This document shows positions 3,567 to 49,248 of a DNA stretch of 64,000 bases, one piece after another. Below the pieces are notes generated by a model. It saw only the letters and a program-made list of their open reading frames with translations. It made no database searches and was not told the origin of the DNA. How positions within the stretch are numbered: the first letter of the stretch is position 1; every line of letters begins with the position of its first letter. Source of the stretch: Promethearchaeia archaeon (GTDB taxonomy: Archaea; Asgardarchaeota; Lokiarchaeia; Sigyniarchaeales; SOKP01); NCBI GenBank assembly GCA_029856105.1, contig JAHQWH010000226.1, forward strand, positions 1 through 64,000. Direction: 5' to 3'. A program made the translations under genes and the position numbers.

Positions 3567-4889
3567 TTAATTTATTTGATAAAAATGTTCTTCAAATTCA
3601 GGCTTTCCCTTATATTTTCCTAAGAATAGCAGTGGAGCCATTTTTATGTTTTTAAAGATATAAGATGGAGCTCGAATCCCTGCTTGTCTCAGCGCTTCTT
3701 GTATGCCGTCAACTTCAGGAGGGCATCCTTTAATCGCGATAAGTTCGTTGATATCTGGATGGTCCTTATTTTTATTATATTGGCATTGTCCAAGAAGTAT
3801 GGTCTTATTCATTCCAGGAGATGGTTCCATGATTTTCCCCGTTAAAATTTCTATATTATCAAAATCCTTACCTTTCCACGCTTCTTTAATTGCCATTAAA
3901 ATAACGCCATTAAAAAAGCTACAATAAGTACACATTGTTTCGTCGTATTTGCGATAACTTATTCCGCCGATACCCGCTTTAGCATAAGAGAGAGGTAATG
4001 TATTGTTATTTTTGTATATGAATTCCCATCCATGAGGAACGGCAAGGTCTTCTATGGTCTCTCCTTTTACTTCAATGTCGGATAAATCTATTGGGCAATT
4101 TCTATCTTTAGCCGCTTGAACCAAATGAGGGACGGCTATAGGGTCAATGCCTAATAAACTCGAACCAACTAAATCTGCTGAAAGAATGTTAGTTGATGCA
4201 ACTATTATGTCACTTCTGCGGGCTTTACCGTCAAAAGTTGGGCCCCTCTCAAGCGTGTAAACCCCATCAATGATTGTAAGACTAGGTGGTGCTTTGTTCG
4301 CTAGTTTAGACACATTATAATGAAGAGTATATTTGGGATCGTCACCATGGAACTTTTTACGCGACGGAATGTTAATCAAACCTTTTAAATTTTTTAACCC
4401 TAAACTGACAACACATTGAGCGTGTGTTTTGAGAACTGGGACATCTATTAAAAAGTCAGATTGAAGCATATCTGAGTTCATTTTTGCGGTTACACCTTCT
4501 GCGAGCTCTACTTTTTCAAATGGGCGCTCAAAAATATCGTATACTTTAATGTCATACCGTTTCTTGAATATATTATATCCAAGCTTTTCGAAGGCATCTT
4601 TAGATGTTTCCCTATCTTTTGGATCTTCTGTAATTATTCCTTCTCCAATGGTGATATCAGTAACACCATGTTCTTTCAGCAATATTAAAATCTCTTCCAT
4701 TACGCTCGAAGTTGTTAGCATACCCCACTTCGGAAAATCACAGTGCCTATTCCAATAGACTAAATTAGGCTTTATGAAAACTTTCGCGCTAGGGTCAAGA
4801 TTTTCGAACCCATTAGCAAGATCAACGGCTTTTCGAACGGATTCCGATCCCTTTTCGTATTTAACAATAGAAACTATCGATTTATTCAT
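3567..4889 (-). CDS. DUF362 domain-containing (Fe-S associated) protein
   Basis: VFIKPNL, PVLKTH, LGLKNLKG, TIIDG motifs; C-terminal CTYC and GCPP. Confidence 0.85.
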   Translation of the reverse strand: MNKSIVSIVKYEKGSESVRKAVDLANGFENLDPSAKVFIKPNLVYWNRHCDFPKWGMLTTSSVMEEILILLKEHGVTDITIGEGIITEDPKDRETSKDAFEKLGYNIFKKRYDIKVYDIFERPFEKVELAEGVTAKMNSDMLQSDFLIDVPVLKTHAQCVVSLGLKNLKGLINIPSRKKFHGDDPKYTLHYNVSKLANKAPPSLTIIDGVYTLERGPTFDGKARRSDIIVASTNILSADLVGSSLLGIDPIAVPHLVQAAKDRNCPIDLSDIEVKGETIEDLAVPHGWEFIYKNNNTLPLSYAKAGIGGISYRKYDETMCTYCSFFNGVILMAIKEAWKGKDFDNIEILTGKIMEPSPGMNKTILLGQCQYNKNKDHPDINELIAIKGCPPEVDGIQEALRQAGIRAPSYIFKNIKMAPLLFLGKYKGKPEFEEHFYQIN

Positions 4890-36334: not shown

Positions 36335-36403
36335 AAATAGATAGGTTAATTGGAGAATTCAAATAAAGTTATATTAATTAAATATTGTATAATAATAGAA
36401 ATA

Positions 36404-37519
36404 ATGGGCAATCTTACTGTTGTTTTGGATATTGGGCAGTTCTCGACTAAGGCCGGGTATGCTGGGGAAGATATGCCAACTCAAATCTTTTTTACGATAG
36501 TAGGAAAACCTAAGTATAGACAGATCGATTACGAATACGCGGGTATTAAACAAGACGAATATTATGTAGGAGACGAAATCCAATCAATAGGCTTGTATAA
36601 AGTTTTTTATCCAATTGATAAAGGAATAATCCAGGACTGGCTGTCGTTTGAAAAAATAATTGATTACATTTTCTACAATTTGAGAGTTGATCCAAGTTTA
36701 GTCAACGTTTTATTCGCCGTCCACCCATTGTTTCCACACGGGGATATAAAACGGCTATTTGAATTATTTTTAGAAAACTACCAGTGCAACGCGTTTTATC
36801 CCGTTTTAGACTCTATGCTTACTTTATACGCGGGAGGATTTCAAACAGGGTTAGTGGTTGAAATAGGGGATAGTATCACGAGAATAGTGCCAATTTACGA
36901 GGGATACAAGTTAGATCATGCAGTAAGGATACTTGAGATTGGTGGAAGAACTTTAACCAAGTATATGGAAAAAATATTAGGTGAAAGTGGCTTTTCAGCT
37001 GACTCTTCAATTAGAAAAGAACTGGTAAGAGCCCTCAAAGAAAAAGCTTGCTTCGTCTCGCTCGATTATAAAGAAGATTTAAAAAGAGCTGAACAGTATG
37101 AAAAAGAGTATTCTTTACCGGATGGTTCTACCATTTCTTTGAGTAAAGAAAGATTTGCCGTGCCTGAGCTTTTTTTTAATCCATCATTAGAATTGGAAGA
37201 AGATTCTTTAACAGAGGCTATTATGGATGTAATCGACATGTGTGACGTCGATATCCGAGCAGACTTATTGAACAACATTTTTTTATCGGGAGGATCGTCT
37301 CTATTTCCGAATTTCAAATCTAGAATGTATCAAGAATTAGAATTTGAATTAGCACGGAGGAAAAAAAAGAACCAAATTATCAAAATAATAGCACCTAGGG
37401 AACGAGTATTCTCTGTTTGGGTTGGTGGTTCAATCTTAGCTACCATTCCTGAATTTCAAAGTAATTGGGTAACGCGTGCAAAATATTTTAAAGATGGTAT
37501 TCCTGAGAATCTTTTATAG
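36404..37519 (+). CDS. Asgard actin-related protein (divergent)
   Basis: VVLDIG..STKAGYAGED.P, YVGDE, YPI..GII.DW, GLVVEIGD, VPIYEGY, KEK.C.V.LDY, Y.LPDG, LSGGS, SVWVGGSILA; start placed at ATG 36404 to match the actin N-terminus. Confidence 0.95.
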   Translation: MGNLTVVLDIGQFSTKAGYAGEDMPTQIFFTIVGKPKYRQIDYEYAGIKQDEYYVGDEIQSIGLYKVFYPIDKGIIQDWLSFEKIIDYIFYNLRVDPSLVNVLFAVHPLFPHGDIKRLFELFLENYQCNAFYPVLDSMLTLYAGGFQTGLVVEIGDSITRIVPIYEGYKLDHAVRILEIGGRTLTKYMEKILGESGFSADSSIRKELVRALKEKACFVSLDYKEDLKRAEQYEKEYSLPDGSTISLSKERFAVPELFFNPSLELEEDSLTEAIMDVIDMCDVDIRADLLNNIFLSGGSSLFPNFKSRMYQELEFELARRKKKNQIIKIIAPRERVFSVWVGGSILATIPEFQSNWVTRAKYFKDGIPENLL

Positions 37520-46061: not shown

Positions 46062-46553
46062 CTACATATTAACTTTAAAAATATCTTGAATTGATCTTTC
46101 TCTGCGAGCTTTTTCAACGATTCTACGCCAATCCGGTTCGATTTTATCAAAAGTATTTTCAGTAAGTTGTCGTAATTTGTCGTCAGACGATTTAAGAAAA
46201 TGTCCTATGTATTCTAAAGCCCTTTTATCTTTTATTTTAGCAAAACTTTCGATGATAAAAATCACTTTTAACTTATCCAACTCTATTTCTGGTTTTTCAA
46301 TTTCTTCTTTTAATTTCTGTAATATTCTTAGCGTTGCTCTTCCATCTGCTATTTGTCCTAAGGCTTCTATAATTCGATTAACAACCATCGGTTCATCTTC
46401 GATATTTAACGCTCGACACAATAAATTGACGGCCCTTCCATCTTTTAAAAACCCAAGTTGTCTTGCAGCTTCAGCTCTTTTTTCGGCTTCTTTTTCGTGA
46501 AATAATTGTTTGATTAAGTTATTATAATTAGCGTTTCTAGCATTCCAATCCAT
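46062..46553 (-). CDS. HEAT-repeat protein
   Basis: RAEAARQLG..KD.RAV..L, IIEALGQI.D.RA repeats. Confidence 0.85.
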   Translation of the reverse strand: MDWNARNANYNNLIKQLFHEKEAEKRAEAARQLGFLKDGRAVNLLCRALNIEDEPMVVNRIIEALGQIADGRATLRILQKLKEEIEKPEIELDKLKVIFIIESFAKIKDKRALEYIGHFLKSSDDKLRQLTENTFDKIEPDWRRIVEKARRERSIQDIFKVNM

Positions 46554-46632
46554 AATCCTATTTAAAATAAGAGCTACAAATATTAGAATGTAATCTTTAT
46601 AAAATATAATTAAAAAAAAGGTTAGTAATAGC

Positions 46633-46686
46633 TTATTTTATTCCGTGTATGATGGAATTCATGTGATCTATTCTTTTTTGCAGTAA
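46633..46686 (-). repeat. Displaced purD 3' end, copy A (encodes LLQKRIDHMNSIIHGIK*)
   Basis: 28-bp core GAATTCATGTGATCTATTCTTTTTTGCA (46655-46682) identical to purD 47942-47969. Confidence 0.92.
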
Positions 46687-46759
46687 TACATCAAAGAAAA
46701 AACTTATAAATTAATTATGTATAATTTTATATTGAAATTCAAAATTATTTTGTTTAAGA

Positions 46760-47404
46760 GTGATAATAATGAGTTCGCAAATAAGCTGTCCAAATTGTGG
46801 TAAAGTAAATAATATTAAAAATACATATTGCATTGAATGTGGATTTCAATTTGAAGGAAATAGTTCTATTGAGTTTCAAATTATTGAAAATTTAAAAGTA
46901 GATCTCTATGGAAGTATAATATGCATCATAATTTTTGTCGCTTTTATGATCTTAATAACTGTTGGAATTATATCTGAATATGGCCTATATGGATGTATTT
47001 CAATTGTAATAATTTGGCCACTAACAATAGGGTTTATAGTTTGGGCAAAAAGTTATTTTAAAGGGCTTTCAAAGTCTAGGAGATTTACAATTACTAAAGA
47101 TTTTATTGAAATAATTGTTCCTCATAAGCCTGCCTTTCAAATTAAATGGTCTGAATTTGATTCTCTCGAAATTACCAGACGAGACTCAATGACAACAATA
47201 CCAACAGGAGGCGGAAATATTTATGGTCCTAGATTTGTATACTTTAACTTAATTTTTAAAGGAAGAAATGAAGAACGTAGCTATGAATTTGAGTCAGGAA
47301 AAGATTTTAAAGTGAAATCGAGAAAAAAAATACAAATTGCTTTAGAGCAATATTCTAAAGATAAAGGAAAAGATTTTACAGGATGGAAGCAGAAGGATAG
47401 TTAA
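46760..47404 (+). CDS. Zinc-ribbon + 2-TM + PH-like domain protein (cargo of cassette 1)
   Basis: CPNCG...YCIECG, two TM helices, beta-rich C-domain with I.WSEF motif. Confidence 0.75.
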   Translation: MIIMSSQISCPNCGKVNNIKNTYCIECGFQFEGNSSIEFQIIENLKVDLYGSIICIIIFVAFMILITVGIISEYGLYGCISIVIIWPLTIGFIVWAKSYFKGLSKSRRFTITKDFIEIIVPHKPAFQIKWSEFDSLEITRRDSMTTIPTGGGNIYGPRFVYFNLIFKGRNEERSYEFESGKDFKVKSRKKIQIALEQYSKDKGKDFTGWKQKDS

Positions 47405-47410
47405 AAAAGG

Positions 47411-47458
47411 TATTATTTTAGTAGAGAATTCATGTGATCTATTCTTTTTTGCAATAAC
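47411..47458 (-). repeat. Displaced purD 3' end, copy B (encodes LLQKRIDHMNSLLK*)
   Basis: Matches 47927-47974; the differences (CTA CTA vs CTT TTG) are synonymous. Confidence 0.95.
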
Positions 47459-47659
47459 AATTCTCAGGTTTGGTTGTGACACTTATCAAGCGATTAAATA
47501 TCGATTTCATGCTTTCTCCCTTAATTAGATATGACGAAAAAATTCTCCTTTGTATAAGATTTTTTAATATCTGAAGACTCTAGACTCGTCTCTTTTTTCA
47601 GTATTTTGTATAATTTTTCGTGATTAAAATTCTGGAAAAAAAAAATGATCGATTCTCCA

Positions 47660-47854
47660 TCAATTTTCTTTTTTAATTCTTTTATAATCGGCAGTACAAT
47701 AATGCCAGATTGCTTCAATTAAAAAGAATAAAGCTAGATAACCAAACACAGAAGACCACCATTCCAACTTAAAATAAGACCAAACTAAAACCAATATCAT
47801 ACCTGTAACCAATAAAATTGAGCCATGTATTTCTAATTTCATTATTTTATCCAT
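47660..47854 (-). CDS. Small 2-TM membrane protein (cargo of cassette 2)
   Basis: 64 aa, two hydrophobic helices, GAGGT SD-like motif upstream. Confidence 0.6.
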   Translation of the reverse strand: MDKIMKLEIHGSILLVTGMILVLVWSYFKLEWWSSVFGYLALFFLIEAIWHYCTADYKRIKKEN

Positions 47855-47901
47855 TTTTAAACCTCAAGATTAAATTTAATATTCAATATGTTCCATATAA
47901 T

Positions 47902-47923
47902 AAATATGCACATATGCATATTT
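47902..47923. promoter_or_regulatory. Perfect 9-bp inverted repeat next to the purD stop
   Basis: AAATATGCA-cata-TGCATATTT. Confidence 0.45.
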
Positions 47924-47928
47924 TGATA

Positions 47929-49248
47929 TTATTTCAAAAGAGAATTCATGTGATCTATTCTTTTTTGCAATAACTTTAAGGTTCCAACATCTTTTCTATA
48001 AAATAGTTTTCCACTTATACATCCAATTCCTTGTTCAGCAATCTTTTCCGCACTTTCTAAATCGTTCGCAATGCCAACCACTCCTATAGCTCTTGATGTT
48101 GTAGTATAAATATCGTCACCTTTTCGGTAAATCGAAGCGTAATAATATTTCGCACCAATCTGTTTCAACTTATTTTTATCGATTTTTACCAGTTCATCTT
48201 TCTTAGGAGCGCCGGGATATCCTTCGGGAGCTAAATATTTACATACCGTAGCCTTGTTCTCAAATTCAATATTGGATTTTAAGTTGCCATTTATTATTCC
48301 CATACAAATATTAATGAAATCAGTTTTTAATATAGGCAACATGTTCATTGCTTCAGGATCTCCCAACCGAGAATTAAATTCAATTAATTTAATGCCATTT
48401 ACCGTTTTCATGTACCCTCCGTATAAAAATCCTTTATATTCAACACCCGTCTCTGCTTTAACTGCGGCTACAACCTTCTTCATATCTTCGAGAGCTTCAT
48501 CCACATCATTTTGAGTGATAAATGGCATTAGATGGTTCTTCATAGAGTAACTTCCCATACCTCCCGTATTCGGACCAGTATCGTCTTCGTAAGCTCTCTT
48601 ATGATCTTGAACTAAAGGAGTACCAACGACATTTTTCCCGTCAACGAATGTCTGAAGCGTGAATTCTTCTCCTTCGATTTTTTCTTCAATTAGAAATGGC
48701 GATTTTTGTTTAACTATTGATTGACAATAATCTAAAATATCTTGTTTCGAAAAAAGATGGTCACCATAAACTTTTACACCTTTTCCTCCAGTTAGACCAT
48801 CTGGCTTAACTACGATGTTTTCTAAGCCTAAATCTTTAAGATATCTTTCTAAGTTCTCCATAGATTTGAAACTTTTACTTTTGATATTCGATGCGATTTT
48901 ATATTTTTCCAGAAGAGCTCGAGTAAATACTTTTGATCCTTCTAATTGAGCAGCCTCAATTCCAGGTCCTACGCAGGGTATTCCATTCTTTTCTAAAGCA
49001 TCGACTATTCCGACAACTAAAGGTGCCTCTGGACCAATAACAGCAAAATCTATACTATTTTCTTTAGAATAATCTATAATTTCCTTAAAGTCACTTTCAG
49101 AGTGAATCTGTATTCTTCCTTGGCTTAGGTCTTCTAATCCCGCATTTTTAGAACTCATGAACGCGTATAGAGTGGCACCATCCCTTACTAAAGTCTCTCC
49201 TATTACGTGTTCTCTTGCTCCATGTCCAATAATTAATACTTTAACCAT
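47929..49248 (-). CDS. purD: Phosphoribosylamine-glycine ligase
   Basis: G.GAREH, IGPEAPL..GIVD, AAQLEGSK, VVKPDGL.GGKGV, QDHKRAY..DTGPNTGGMG, EFN.R.GDPE. Confidence 0.97.
   Translation of the reverse strand: MVKVLIIGHGAREHVIGETLVRDGATLYAFMSSKNAGLEDLSQGRIQIHSESDFKEIIDYSKENSIDFAVIGPEAPLVVGIVDALEKNGIPCVGPGIEAAQLEGSKVFTRALLEKYKIASNIKSKSFKSMENLERYLKDLGLENIVVKPDGLTGGKGVKVYGDHLFSKQDILDYCQSIVKQKSPFLIEEKIEGEEFTLQTFVDGKNVVGTPLVQDHKRAYEDDTGPNTGGMGSYSMKNHLMPFITQNDVDEALEDMKKVVAAVKAETGVEYKGFLYGGYMKTVNGIKLIEFNSRLGDPEAMNMLPILKTDFINICMGIINGNLKSNIEFENKATVCKYLAPEGYPGAPKKDELVKIDKNKLKQIGAKYYYASIYRKGDDIYTTTSRAIGVVGIANDLESAEKIAEQGIGCISGKLFYRKDVGTLKLLQKRIDHMNSLLK

Follow-up and report, generated by a model that had tools for sequence, protein, structure and literature searches.

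In the 64,000-nucleotide stretch of DNA analysed here (the window; positions 1 to 64,000 of the forward strand of contig JAHQWH010000226.1, assembly GCA_029856105.1, from a Promethearchaeia archaeon of the Sigyniarchaeales), the purD gene for phosphoribosylamine-glycine ligase is followed by two extra copies of its own 3′ end, and a small gene lies in each interval. It is highly probable, whichever enzyme was responsible, that two small DNA units entered the end of purD one after the other and that each restored the tail of the gene. The reading favored here, with about even confidence, is that the locus is a tandem array of two miniature recombinase-less cassettes, inserted serially by conservative recombination in the last purD codons with a recombinase acting in trans. 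The genome of the window (G000) is a metagenome-assembled genome of 238 contigs, 3.66 Mb, and 32% G+C, with a completeness of 92% and a contamination of 6%. In the following, G-numbers denote the genomes compared, L-numbers the loci or contigs compared, and C-numbers the contigs of G000. The features of the locus are as follows.

46062..46553, minus strand: HEAT-repeat gene (Pfam HEAT_2, E 1e-11), the conserved downstream neighbor of purD in the genus.
46554..46632, minus strand: ancestral purD-HEAT intergenic DNA, with 94-98% identity to the HEAT-proximal flank of every close relative, regardless of its cassettes, and alignable to the spacers of empty sites.
46633..46687, minus strand: repeat copy A (attR-like), in which the right end of cassette 2 adjoins the decayed original purD tail; core at 46655-46682, pseudo-tail (SIIHGIK and stop) at 46633-46654.
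46683..47425, plus strand: cassette 2 (Z), unit length 771 bp, consisting of the Z gene and about 80 nucleotides of its own upstream region.
46769-47404, plus strand: Z gene for a 211/214-residue Zn-ribbon membrane protein, with an N-terminal CxxC...CxxC zinc ribbon (weak Zn-ribbon Pfam matches), two membrane helices, and a C-terminal domain of about 100 residues.
47411..47458, minus strand: repeat copy B, in which the right end of cassette 1 adjoins a tail apparently brought earlier by cassette 2.
47454..47941, minus strand: cassette 1 (T+R), unit length 516 bp, consisting of the T gene and the R segment.
47454-47659: R segment, conserved non-coding DNA of about 200 nucleotides, with the arm before copy B at its end.
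47660-47854, minus strand: T gene for a 64-residue membrane protein with two hydrophobic helices; a Shine-Dalgarno-like GAGGT lies 8 nucleotides before the ATG.
47927..47974, minus strand: repeat copy C (attL-like), the active copy, with the left part from the native purD and the tail apparently from cassette 1; exact core at 47942-47969, followed by a short palindrome after the stop codon.
47929..49248, minus strand: purD, 439 codons, the last 14 of which form the active repeat copy (Pfam GARS_N, GARS_A, and GARS_C, E 1e-17 to 1e-50).

The 28-bp core reported in the initial annotation was found by a search of the window in exactly three identical copies (46655-46682, 47426-47453, and 47942-47969), the last of them within purD, while 100 dinucleotide shuffles gave a chance expectation of 0 matches. 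No fourth copy was found in the whole G000 assembly when up to five mismatches were allowed. Including its flanks, the repeat is 48 nucleotides in length (46640-46687, 47411-47458, and 47927-47974), and the distances from start to start are 771 bp and 516 bp. It covers the 14 purD codons beyond the GARS_C domain, whose last residue is 423 of 439. As had been claimed, every copy reads in frame to its own stop codon. The active copy and copy B share the end HMNSLLK, with the two leucines encoded by CTT TTG in the one and CTA CTA in the other, and copy A in the purD frame gives the longer and different tail HMNSIIHGIK. An in-frame TGA stop codon lies just upstream of copy B. The copy A stop codon was measured to be 80 nucleotides ahead of the HEAT gene start (46553), and each intervening segment has one small membrane-protein gene (T or Z), both in agreement with the initial annotation. 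The tail and the palindrome of copy C together form the left end of module T in every occurrence of T.

An 18-nucleotide near-perfect palindrome is located right after the purD stop codon (47903-47930), and it travels at the left end of the T, U, and X modules wherever they were found; it might act as a terminator or as a binding site for a protein. A possible fourth, degenerate core just past the T stop codon (around 47641-47658) and the degenerate tails where T meets the HEAT gene in G009 and G005 were rejected as candidates; they score only at the level of the best shuffles and are suggestive by position alone. The cassette ends lack the terminal inverted repeats that a transposon or a miniature inverted-repeat transposable element would have, and in place of a short target-site duplication there is a direct repeat of 28-48 nucleotides that is a functional gene tail. 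A transposon or IS200/IS605-type origin, once considered for the TTAC found before some internal copies, was dropped, since such elements do not duplicate 28-150 nucleotides of their target.

Is this interval also occupied in other members of the genus? In 17 other genomes of the genus (purD 70-84% identical), purD is directly followed by the HEAT gene with a gap of 69-106 nucleotides, and three more empty-site contigs were found in other collections. In all empty sites, even in other genera of the order, PurD ends with LLQKRI.HMNSLL followed by K, Q, or a few residues. By this comparison, SLLK/SLLQ is the ancestral end of PurD. The active copy in G000 encodes the ancestral ending, and therefore the PurD C-terminus has not been rewritten by the insertions, contrary to the initial annotation. 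Copy A, its tail, and the next 80 nucleotides align colinearly with the purD tail and spacer of the empty sites, and orthologous copy A junctions in G009, G005, L095, and L096 have the same tail end (the right-hand part) and the same HEAT-side flank. Because of this colinearity and these common junctions, copy A is best read as the original purD tail left behind, which has since decayed via a change of about 10 nucleotides. Thus, the initial annotation was right in taking copy A as the original tail and in expecting empty sites and a variable number and content of cassettes in relatives, but the SIIHGIK ending is a product of decay rather than the ancestral form, and the empty sites end with NSLL plus K, Q, or other residues.

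On the other hand, all genomes and contigs whose purD is at least about 87% identical hold an insert between purD and the HEAT gene. At least ten array types were found, composed of six or seven one-gene modules (T, T+R, Z, U, S, X, and A) in shuffled order. Module S encodes a 143-residue SRPBCC-like protein, module U a 64-residue membrane protein different from T, module X a 484-residue multi-pass membrane protein, and module A a MazE/AbrB antitoxin plus a toxin remnant. The arrays, read from purD to the HEAT gene, are as follows.

G009: T
L039, L042, L044: T, S
G000 (the window): T+R, Z
G005: X, T
L034: Z, T, S
G017, L041: U, Z, S
L095: S, Z
L096, L097: U, Z
L040: A
G002: T+R

These empty sites and variable arrays bear out the proposal that small units were inserted twice in succession at the 3′ end of purD, each with its own replacement tail. 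The Z module is 86-91% identical in G017, L034, L041, L095, and L096. A full core copy lies on the HEAT side of Z in G000, G017, and L034, and full core copies flank X in G005 and T+R in G000 and G002. Every array order seen is consistent with insertion at the purD-proximal copy. In G017, the proximal cassette is a U-Z unit and the active purD tail is identical to copy B of G000 at 48 of 48 positions; because of this match and the proximal position of U-Z, it is likely that Z entered the G000 locus first and T+R second. The Z unit of G000 is without about 520 nucleotides that are present in G017, and cassette 2 is, by this alignment, a trimmed deletion derivative of the two-gene U-Z unit. Similarly, in G009, G005, L039, and L034, T is followed by neither R nor the distal core, and U has been deleted in L034. 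In three different cassettes, the left edge of the internal repeat copies is constant within a few nucleotides, and the arms to the left of these copies are closer to one another than to purD. Private variants are common to the copies within one genome (L096 versus G000), which indicates that exchange between the copies is continuing.

Two of these contigs have irregularities. The Z gene of the U, Z array in L096 (5001-5626) is split into open reading frames of 157 and 51 codons via a frameshift or a sequencing error, and this may be cargo decay. The L044 contig (1434-1517 and 751-2100) has a purD with an 11-residue insertion and a short inverted purD fragment, for which an assembly error or a rearrangement is possible.

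The small unit itself has crossed a species boundary. G002 belongs to a more distant species, whose HEAT protein is 63% identical to that of G000, and it carries exactly T+R between two full repeat copies, the distal one of which retains the native SLLQ tail and spacer of its lineage. Between G002 and G000, the cassette is about 93% identical (88-100% per 60-nucleotide window), while purD is about 76% (62-85%) and the HEAT gene about 68% identical. These values indicate that the 516-bp unit as such was transferred horizontally in the recent past, and therefore that it entered at least two lineages recently and independently. The position of the exchange was mapped by comparing both G002 copies with the element copy and the native alleles. 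The attB and attP sequences deduced for G002 differ at 4 of 28 positions, and the exchange appears to be confined to an identical block of 8 nucleotides between mismatches. Such a block is too short for ordinary homologous recombination and is typical of the overlap region of a tyrosine recombinase.

The purD gene of G002 (L064:4617-6953, minus strand) is a 778-codon open frame, which has an insertion of about 340 residues with Hint and LAGLIDADG domains after residue 227. To judge from these domains, the insertion is an intein with a homing endonuclease.

The following order of events would account for the G000 array. The incoming unit, presumably a small circle, would carry one copy of the 28-bp core and its own replacement tail, so that an insertion would leave purD intact and shift the previous tail downstream. 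Starting from the empty site, the Z unit (as the trimmed U-Z) would have inserted first, and the original tail would have stayed as copy A. The 516-bp T+R unit would then have inserted at the active copy, and the tail borne by Z would have stayed as copy B. Strand exchange may take place within the central CACATGAA block of the core. The recombinase would be supplied in trans, and the most likely candidate is a tyrosine recombinase, which could be the Xer-like enzyme conserved in the genus or could come from an element outside the sample. A site-specific enzyme in trans is favored because the exchange in an 8-nucleotide block took place between mismatched partners, the core edges are constant, and the arms are related.

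Several results weigh against such an enzyme. No match to PF00589 or PF00239 (tyrosine and serine recombinases) was found in the 92%-complete G000 assembly. In favor of an enzyme in trans, a conserved Xer-like tyrosine recombinase of about 315 residues was found in 37 of 41 relatives, and the gene was probably missed in the incomplete assembly of G000. Extra tyrosine recombinases exist elsewhere in some relatives, including G005, G017, and G009, while no att-like sequence above background was found within about 8 kb of the extra recombinases of G005, G017, G008, G009, and G007. No recombinase gene was found in or near any array of G000 or the relatives, in line with the initial annotation, which had called the cassettes integrase-less; more broadly, no integrase, replication, or virion gene was found in or beside about 12 sampled arrays or the database matches to the core. 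When the core and its halves were searched for in viral contigs, species-representative genomes, and metagenome contigs, they were found at purD loci only. Neither an attP-bearing virus or plasmid, nor a circle junction, nor a parent element with an integrase was found in the viral, genome, and metagenome collections, which may simply not contain such an element. The inverted-repeat arms around the core are significant in the active copy alone (p<0.005) and absent in copy B. Since they are not conserved between the copies, these arms were rejected as a general feature of a recombinase site. Furthermore, the core is absent or truncated at the T-S and T-HEAT junctions and at the U insertion, which look like deletions or illegitimate joins at A-rich microhomologies. 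Finally, one purD-specific enzyme cannot explain the tail duplications at four other genes with unrelated sequences described below.

I performed a genome-wide scan of G000 for isolated direct repeats overlapping the ends of open reading frames. At least four further loci were found (L072-L075; C32:3232/4642, C132:8533/9938, C11:6636/9139, and C96:22369/24154), at which the last 30-150 nucleotides of a gene are repeated 1.4-2.5 kb downstream and the repeat ends with the stop codon. Each interval holds one or two small genes and lacks an integrase, the repeats of the different loci have no relation to each other, and in close relatives these sites are empty or carry different cargo. At C11, each copy is cleanly hybrid, with one part from a native allele and the other from a foreign one, resembling attL and attR. 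At C32, the end of the active gene is foreign (G002-like) for at least 200 nucleotides, past the 105-nucleotide repeat, while the distal copy is native. Moreover, purD itself is strongly mosaic among close relatives (L031-L034 and L039-L041). The first 400 nucleotides fall into two allele groups, which are 79% identical between and 94-98% within the groups, and the rest of purD is 89-96% identical, except that the last 70 or so nucleotides of the G009 purD are an outlier (76-81%). Thus, homologous exchange must be rampant between these lineages.

These loci bring up the strongest alternative, that the traffic is independent of a recombinase. Circles or fragments with a gene tail plus cargo would enter by a Campbell-type single crossover, or by one-sided homologous recombination and an illegitimate join, with the gene tail as a portable homology. 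The repeat would stop at the stop codon as donor and recipient differ beyond it, and the arrays would grow and reshuffle by unequal crossing-over. This is a tenable explanation of lower probability than a site-specific enzyme. It is favored because there are many unrelated target tails with the same signature and integrase-free inserts of 1.4-2.7 kb, no integrase near these loci, no conserved inverted symmetry, and ample homologous exchange, as in the purD mosaic (79% versus 97% in the first 400 nucleotides). The foreign allele extending beyond the repeat at C32 and the private variants within genomes, which fit gene conversion, point in the same direction. On the other hand, the purD repeat is merely 28-48 nucleotides in length, and the partners in the G002 event, with their mismatches and their short exchange block, are far below the usual homology requirement. 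The constant left edges and related arms of three cassettes are not expected of independent random fragment ends. The clean hybrid at C11 also resembles the product of site-specific recombination, though either mechanism yields such a structure.

The cargo genes have other homes, and they are, judging from these occurrences, ordinary nomadic accessory genes. The Z family consists of 83 clusters, all of which are from Asgard archaea. In other species (L065, L068, and L098, around 4001-4660), homologues of Z (74-82% identical) are flanked by a GH2 glycosidase gene on one side and HGD-D genes on the other, and their DNA similarity to the array Z spans the gene and about 80 nucleotides upstream. 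At this spot, G000 has instead a 343-codon nitronate-monooxygenase-like gene (C19:141333-142364), and therefore the GH2/HGD-D spacer is also a site of one-gene replacement. No Z gene at all was found in G005, G009, and G002. The U unit, which is contained in the purD arrays of G017, L041, and L096, is 97% identical over 276 nucleotides to an unrelated G000 locus (C58:4269-4544; L076) without purD-tail repeats. Homologues of T are located behind an arginine decarboxylase gene in other genomes. In addition, a Loki_b32 contig (L091:2555-3529) has a T homologue (83% amino acid identity) inside a 931-bp unit behind an acetyltransferase gene. This unit is bounded by a 44-nucleotide direct repeat (89% identical) and may be another insertion of the purD-cassette kind at a different target.

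Two heavily eroded larger islands had been considered as the alternative in the initial annotation. By this account, larger integrase-bearing elements or proviruses once used the purD tail as attB, and deletions plus inter-strain homologous recombination made the modules. Deletions are indeed evident, as described above for R with its distal core, for U, and for the G000 Z unit, the L040 array with its MazE/AbrB-type antitoxin and toxin-like remnant has typical island cargo, and three relatives have extra tyrosine recombinases elsewhere. Nevertheless, this origin is unlikely. The arrays lack any integrase, replication, or virion gene, the intact 516-bp unit itself traveled between species with much more divergent purD genes, and Z, T, and U have other chromosomal homes as ordinary accessory genes. 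The ends of the small modules are conserved from array to array, although the order of the modules varies. Lastly, an assembly artefact, in which strain variants were mis-joined or a free circle was joined to the chromosome in a metagenome-assembled genome, is very improbable despite the fragmentation and contamination of G000 and the odd inverted purD fragment in L044; the junctions must be read-supported because the repeats of 28-48 nucleotides are shorter than the usual final k-mers, separate projects with different assemblers arrived independently at arrays of this kind, and the flanks of the copies differ in a phylogenetically coherent way.

Is the purD array one instance of a wider phenomenon? 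It is conceivable, as a tentative extension, that a genus-wide cassette system without a dedicated integrase shuttles accessory genes among the 3′ ends of housekeeping genes (purD, dCMP-deaminase, acyl-CoA-synthetase-like, and others), with the gene tail as a portable attachment site and with catalysis by the host Xer-like recombinase or by the short-homology recombination machinery. If true, genes would flow among these archaeal relatives of eukaryotes by a route similar to that of integrons.

The locus resembles several known systems. As in integrative elements, the direct repeats are identical to the target 3′ end and the target gene is restored, while the integrase encoded by such elements is absent; the two cassettes hold only the genes for the membrane proteins of 64 and 211 residues. 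In Streptococcus, integrative and conjugative elements (ICEs; ICESt1 and ICESt3 at fda) and cis-mobilizable elements (CIMEs) accrete in tandem at the 3′ end of a conserved gene. The purD array likewise consists of att-flanked units without recombination or transfer genes, stacked in tandem at one attB; the two systems share the direct repeats of the target 3′ end, the restoration of the target, and the presence of units without any recombination gene, which at purD would rely on an integrase in trans. In contrast, the units here are 0.5-0.8 kb with one gene, while ICEs and CIMEs are many kb in length, the modules occur in many orders, no integrase-bearing parent was found, and the host is an Asgard archaeon.

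Xer-dependent modules, such as the integrative mobile elements exploiting Xer (IMEX) and the pdif modules of Acinetobacter plasmids, have sites that mimic dif, with 11-bp arms and a 6-bp spacer. They are also small and integrase-less with sites of about 28 bp and can form arrays; their movement is due to the housekeeping tyrosine recombinase of the host, as may be the case at purD. In contrast, the site in the purD array is a coding gene tail, and the Xer-like gene is present in relatives and not in the G000 assembly. In IS26 translocatable units, the repeat is an 820-bp insertion sequence encoding its own transposase. A circle of cargo plus one repeat copy inserts beside an existing copy, in a conservative or RecA-dependent manner, and this yields direct-repeat arrays as at purD, while the repeat at purD is a gene tail of 28-48 nucleotides without an enzyme.

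The integron-like array of the initial annotation stands as an analogy only. The units are one-gene, mostly promoter-poor, and in tandem, the newest is nearest to the insertion point, order and content are variable, and the recombinase lies outside the cassette. However, intI is missing from the neighborhood of the array, as are attI and attC; a PF00589 match is absent from the G000 assembly, and the arrays have no recombinase beside them. The boundaries are direct copies of the purD coding tail, not folding attC sites, and the reading frame of a housekeeping gene must be preserved.

Tycheposons, which drive the formation of genomic islands in Prochlorococcus, carry a tyrosine recombinase together with a replication module and integrate into tRNA genes (bioRxiv 10.1101/2020.12.28.424599). 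In tycheposon islands, repeated integration at one site pushes older elements inward, partial target copies are scattered, and the flexible cargo varies with the environment (bioRxiv 10.1101/2020.12.28.424599), all of which recalls the purD locus. In contrast, the purD array has no recombinase or replication gene, targets a protein gene, and consists of units about ten times smaller, and it is not a tycheposon. The array is best called a new variant of site-directed accretion, here in an Asgard archaeon and with a protein gene as the target, behind which very small, recombinase-free one-gene units accumulate. The literature searched contained no description of purD-tail arrays from Asgard archaea.

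Gene exchange in Asgard archaea is little known and few mobile elements have been described. The purD locus is a compact and defined system with a 28-bp site, units of 0.5-0.8 kb, empty and filled alleles, and documented transfer across species, in which accessory genes are added singly behind an essential gene without disrupting that gene. If the enzyme is a host recombinase, or if recombination at very short homology is responsible, this would amount to a novel means of assembling flexible gene arrays and could explain the other tail duplications in G000. In cultivated Loki-type archaea, the purD site could also be used for genetics as a natural landing pad.

As for the individual genes, purD orthologues were found in 38 of 41 relatives. 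The T gene has a ratio of nonsynonymous to synonymous polymorphism (pN/pS) of 0.1-0.2 and is, by this measure, under purifying selection; the cargo as a whole seems to be mostly small membrane proteins under purifying selection. The R segment is 92% conserved and has no conserved reading frame. Its open reading frames of 65 and 34 codons were rejected as genes, since neither the frame nor the substitution pattern is conserved in comparison with G002, and R was treated as non-coding. An Rfam scan of the interval gave only chance-level microRNA matches and no family for R. In PHROG and Pfam searches, no informative family was found for T, U, or X, and only a weak zinc-ribbon match for Z and a weak SRPBCC match for S were obtained. 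Elsewhere in the window, an actin homologue is encoded at 36350-37519.

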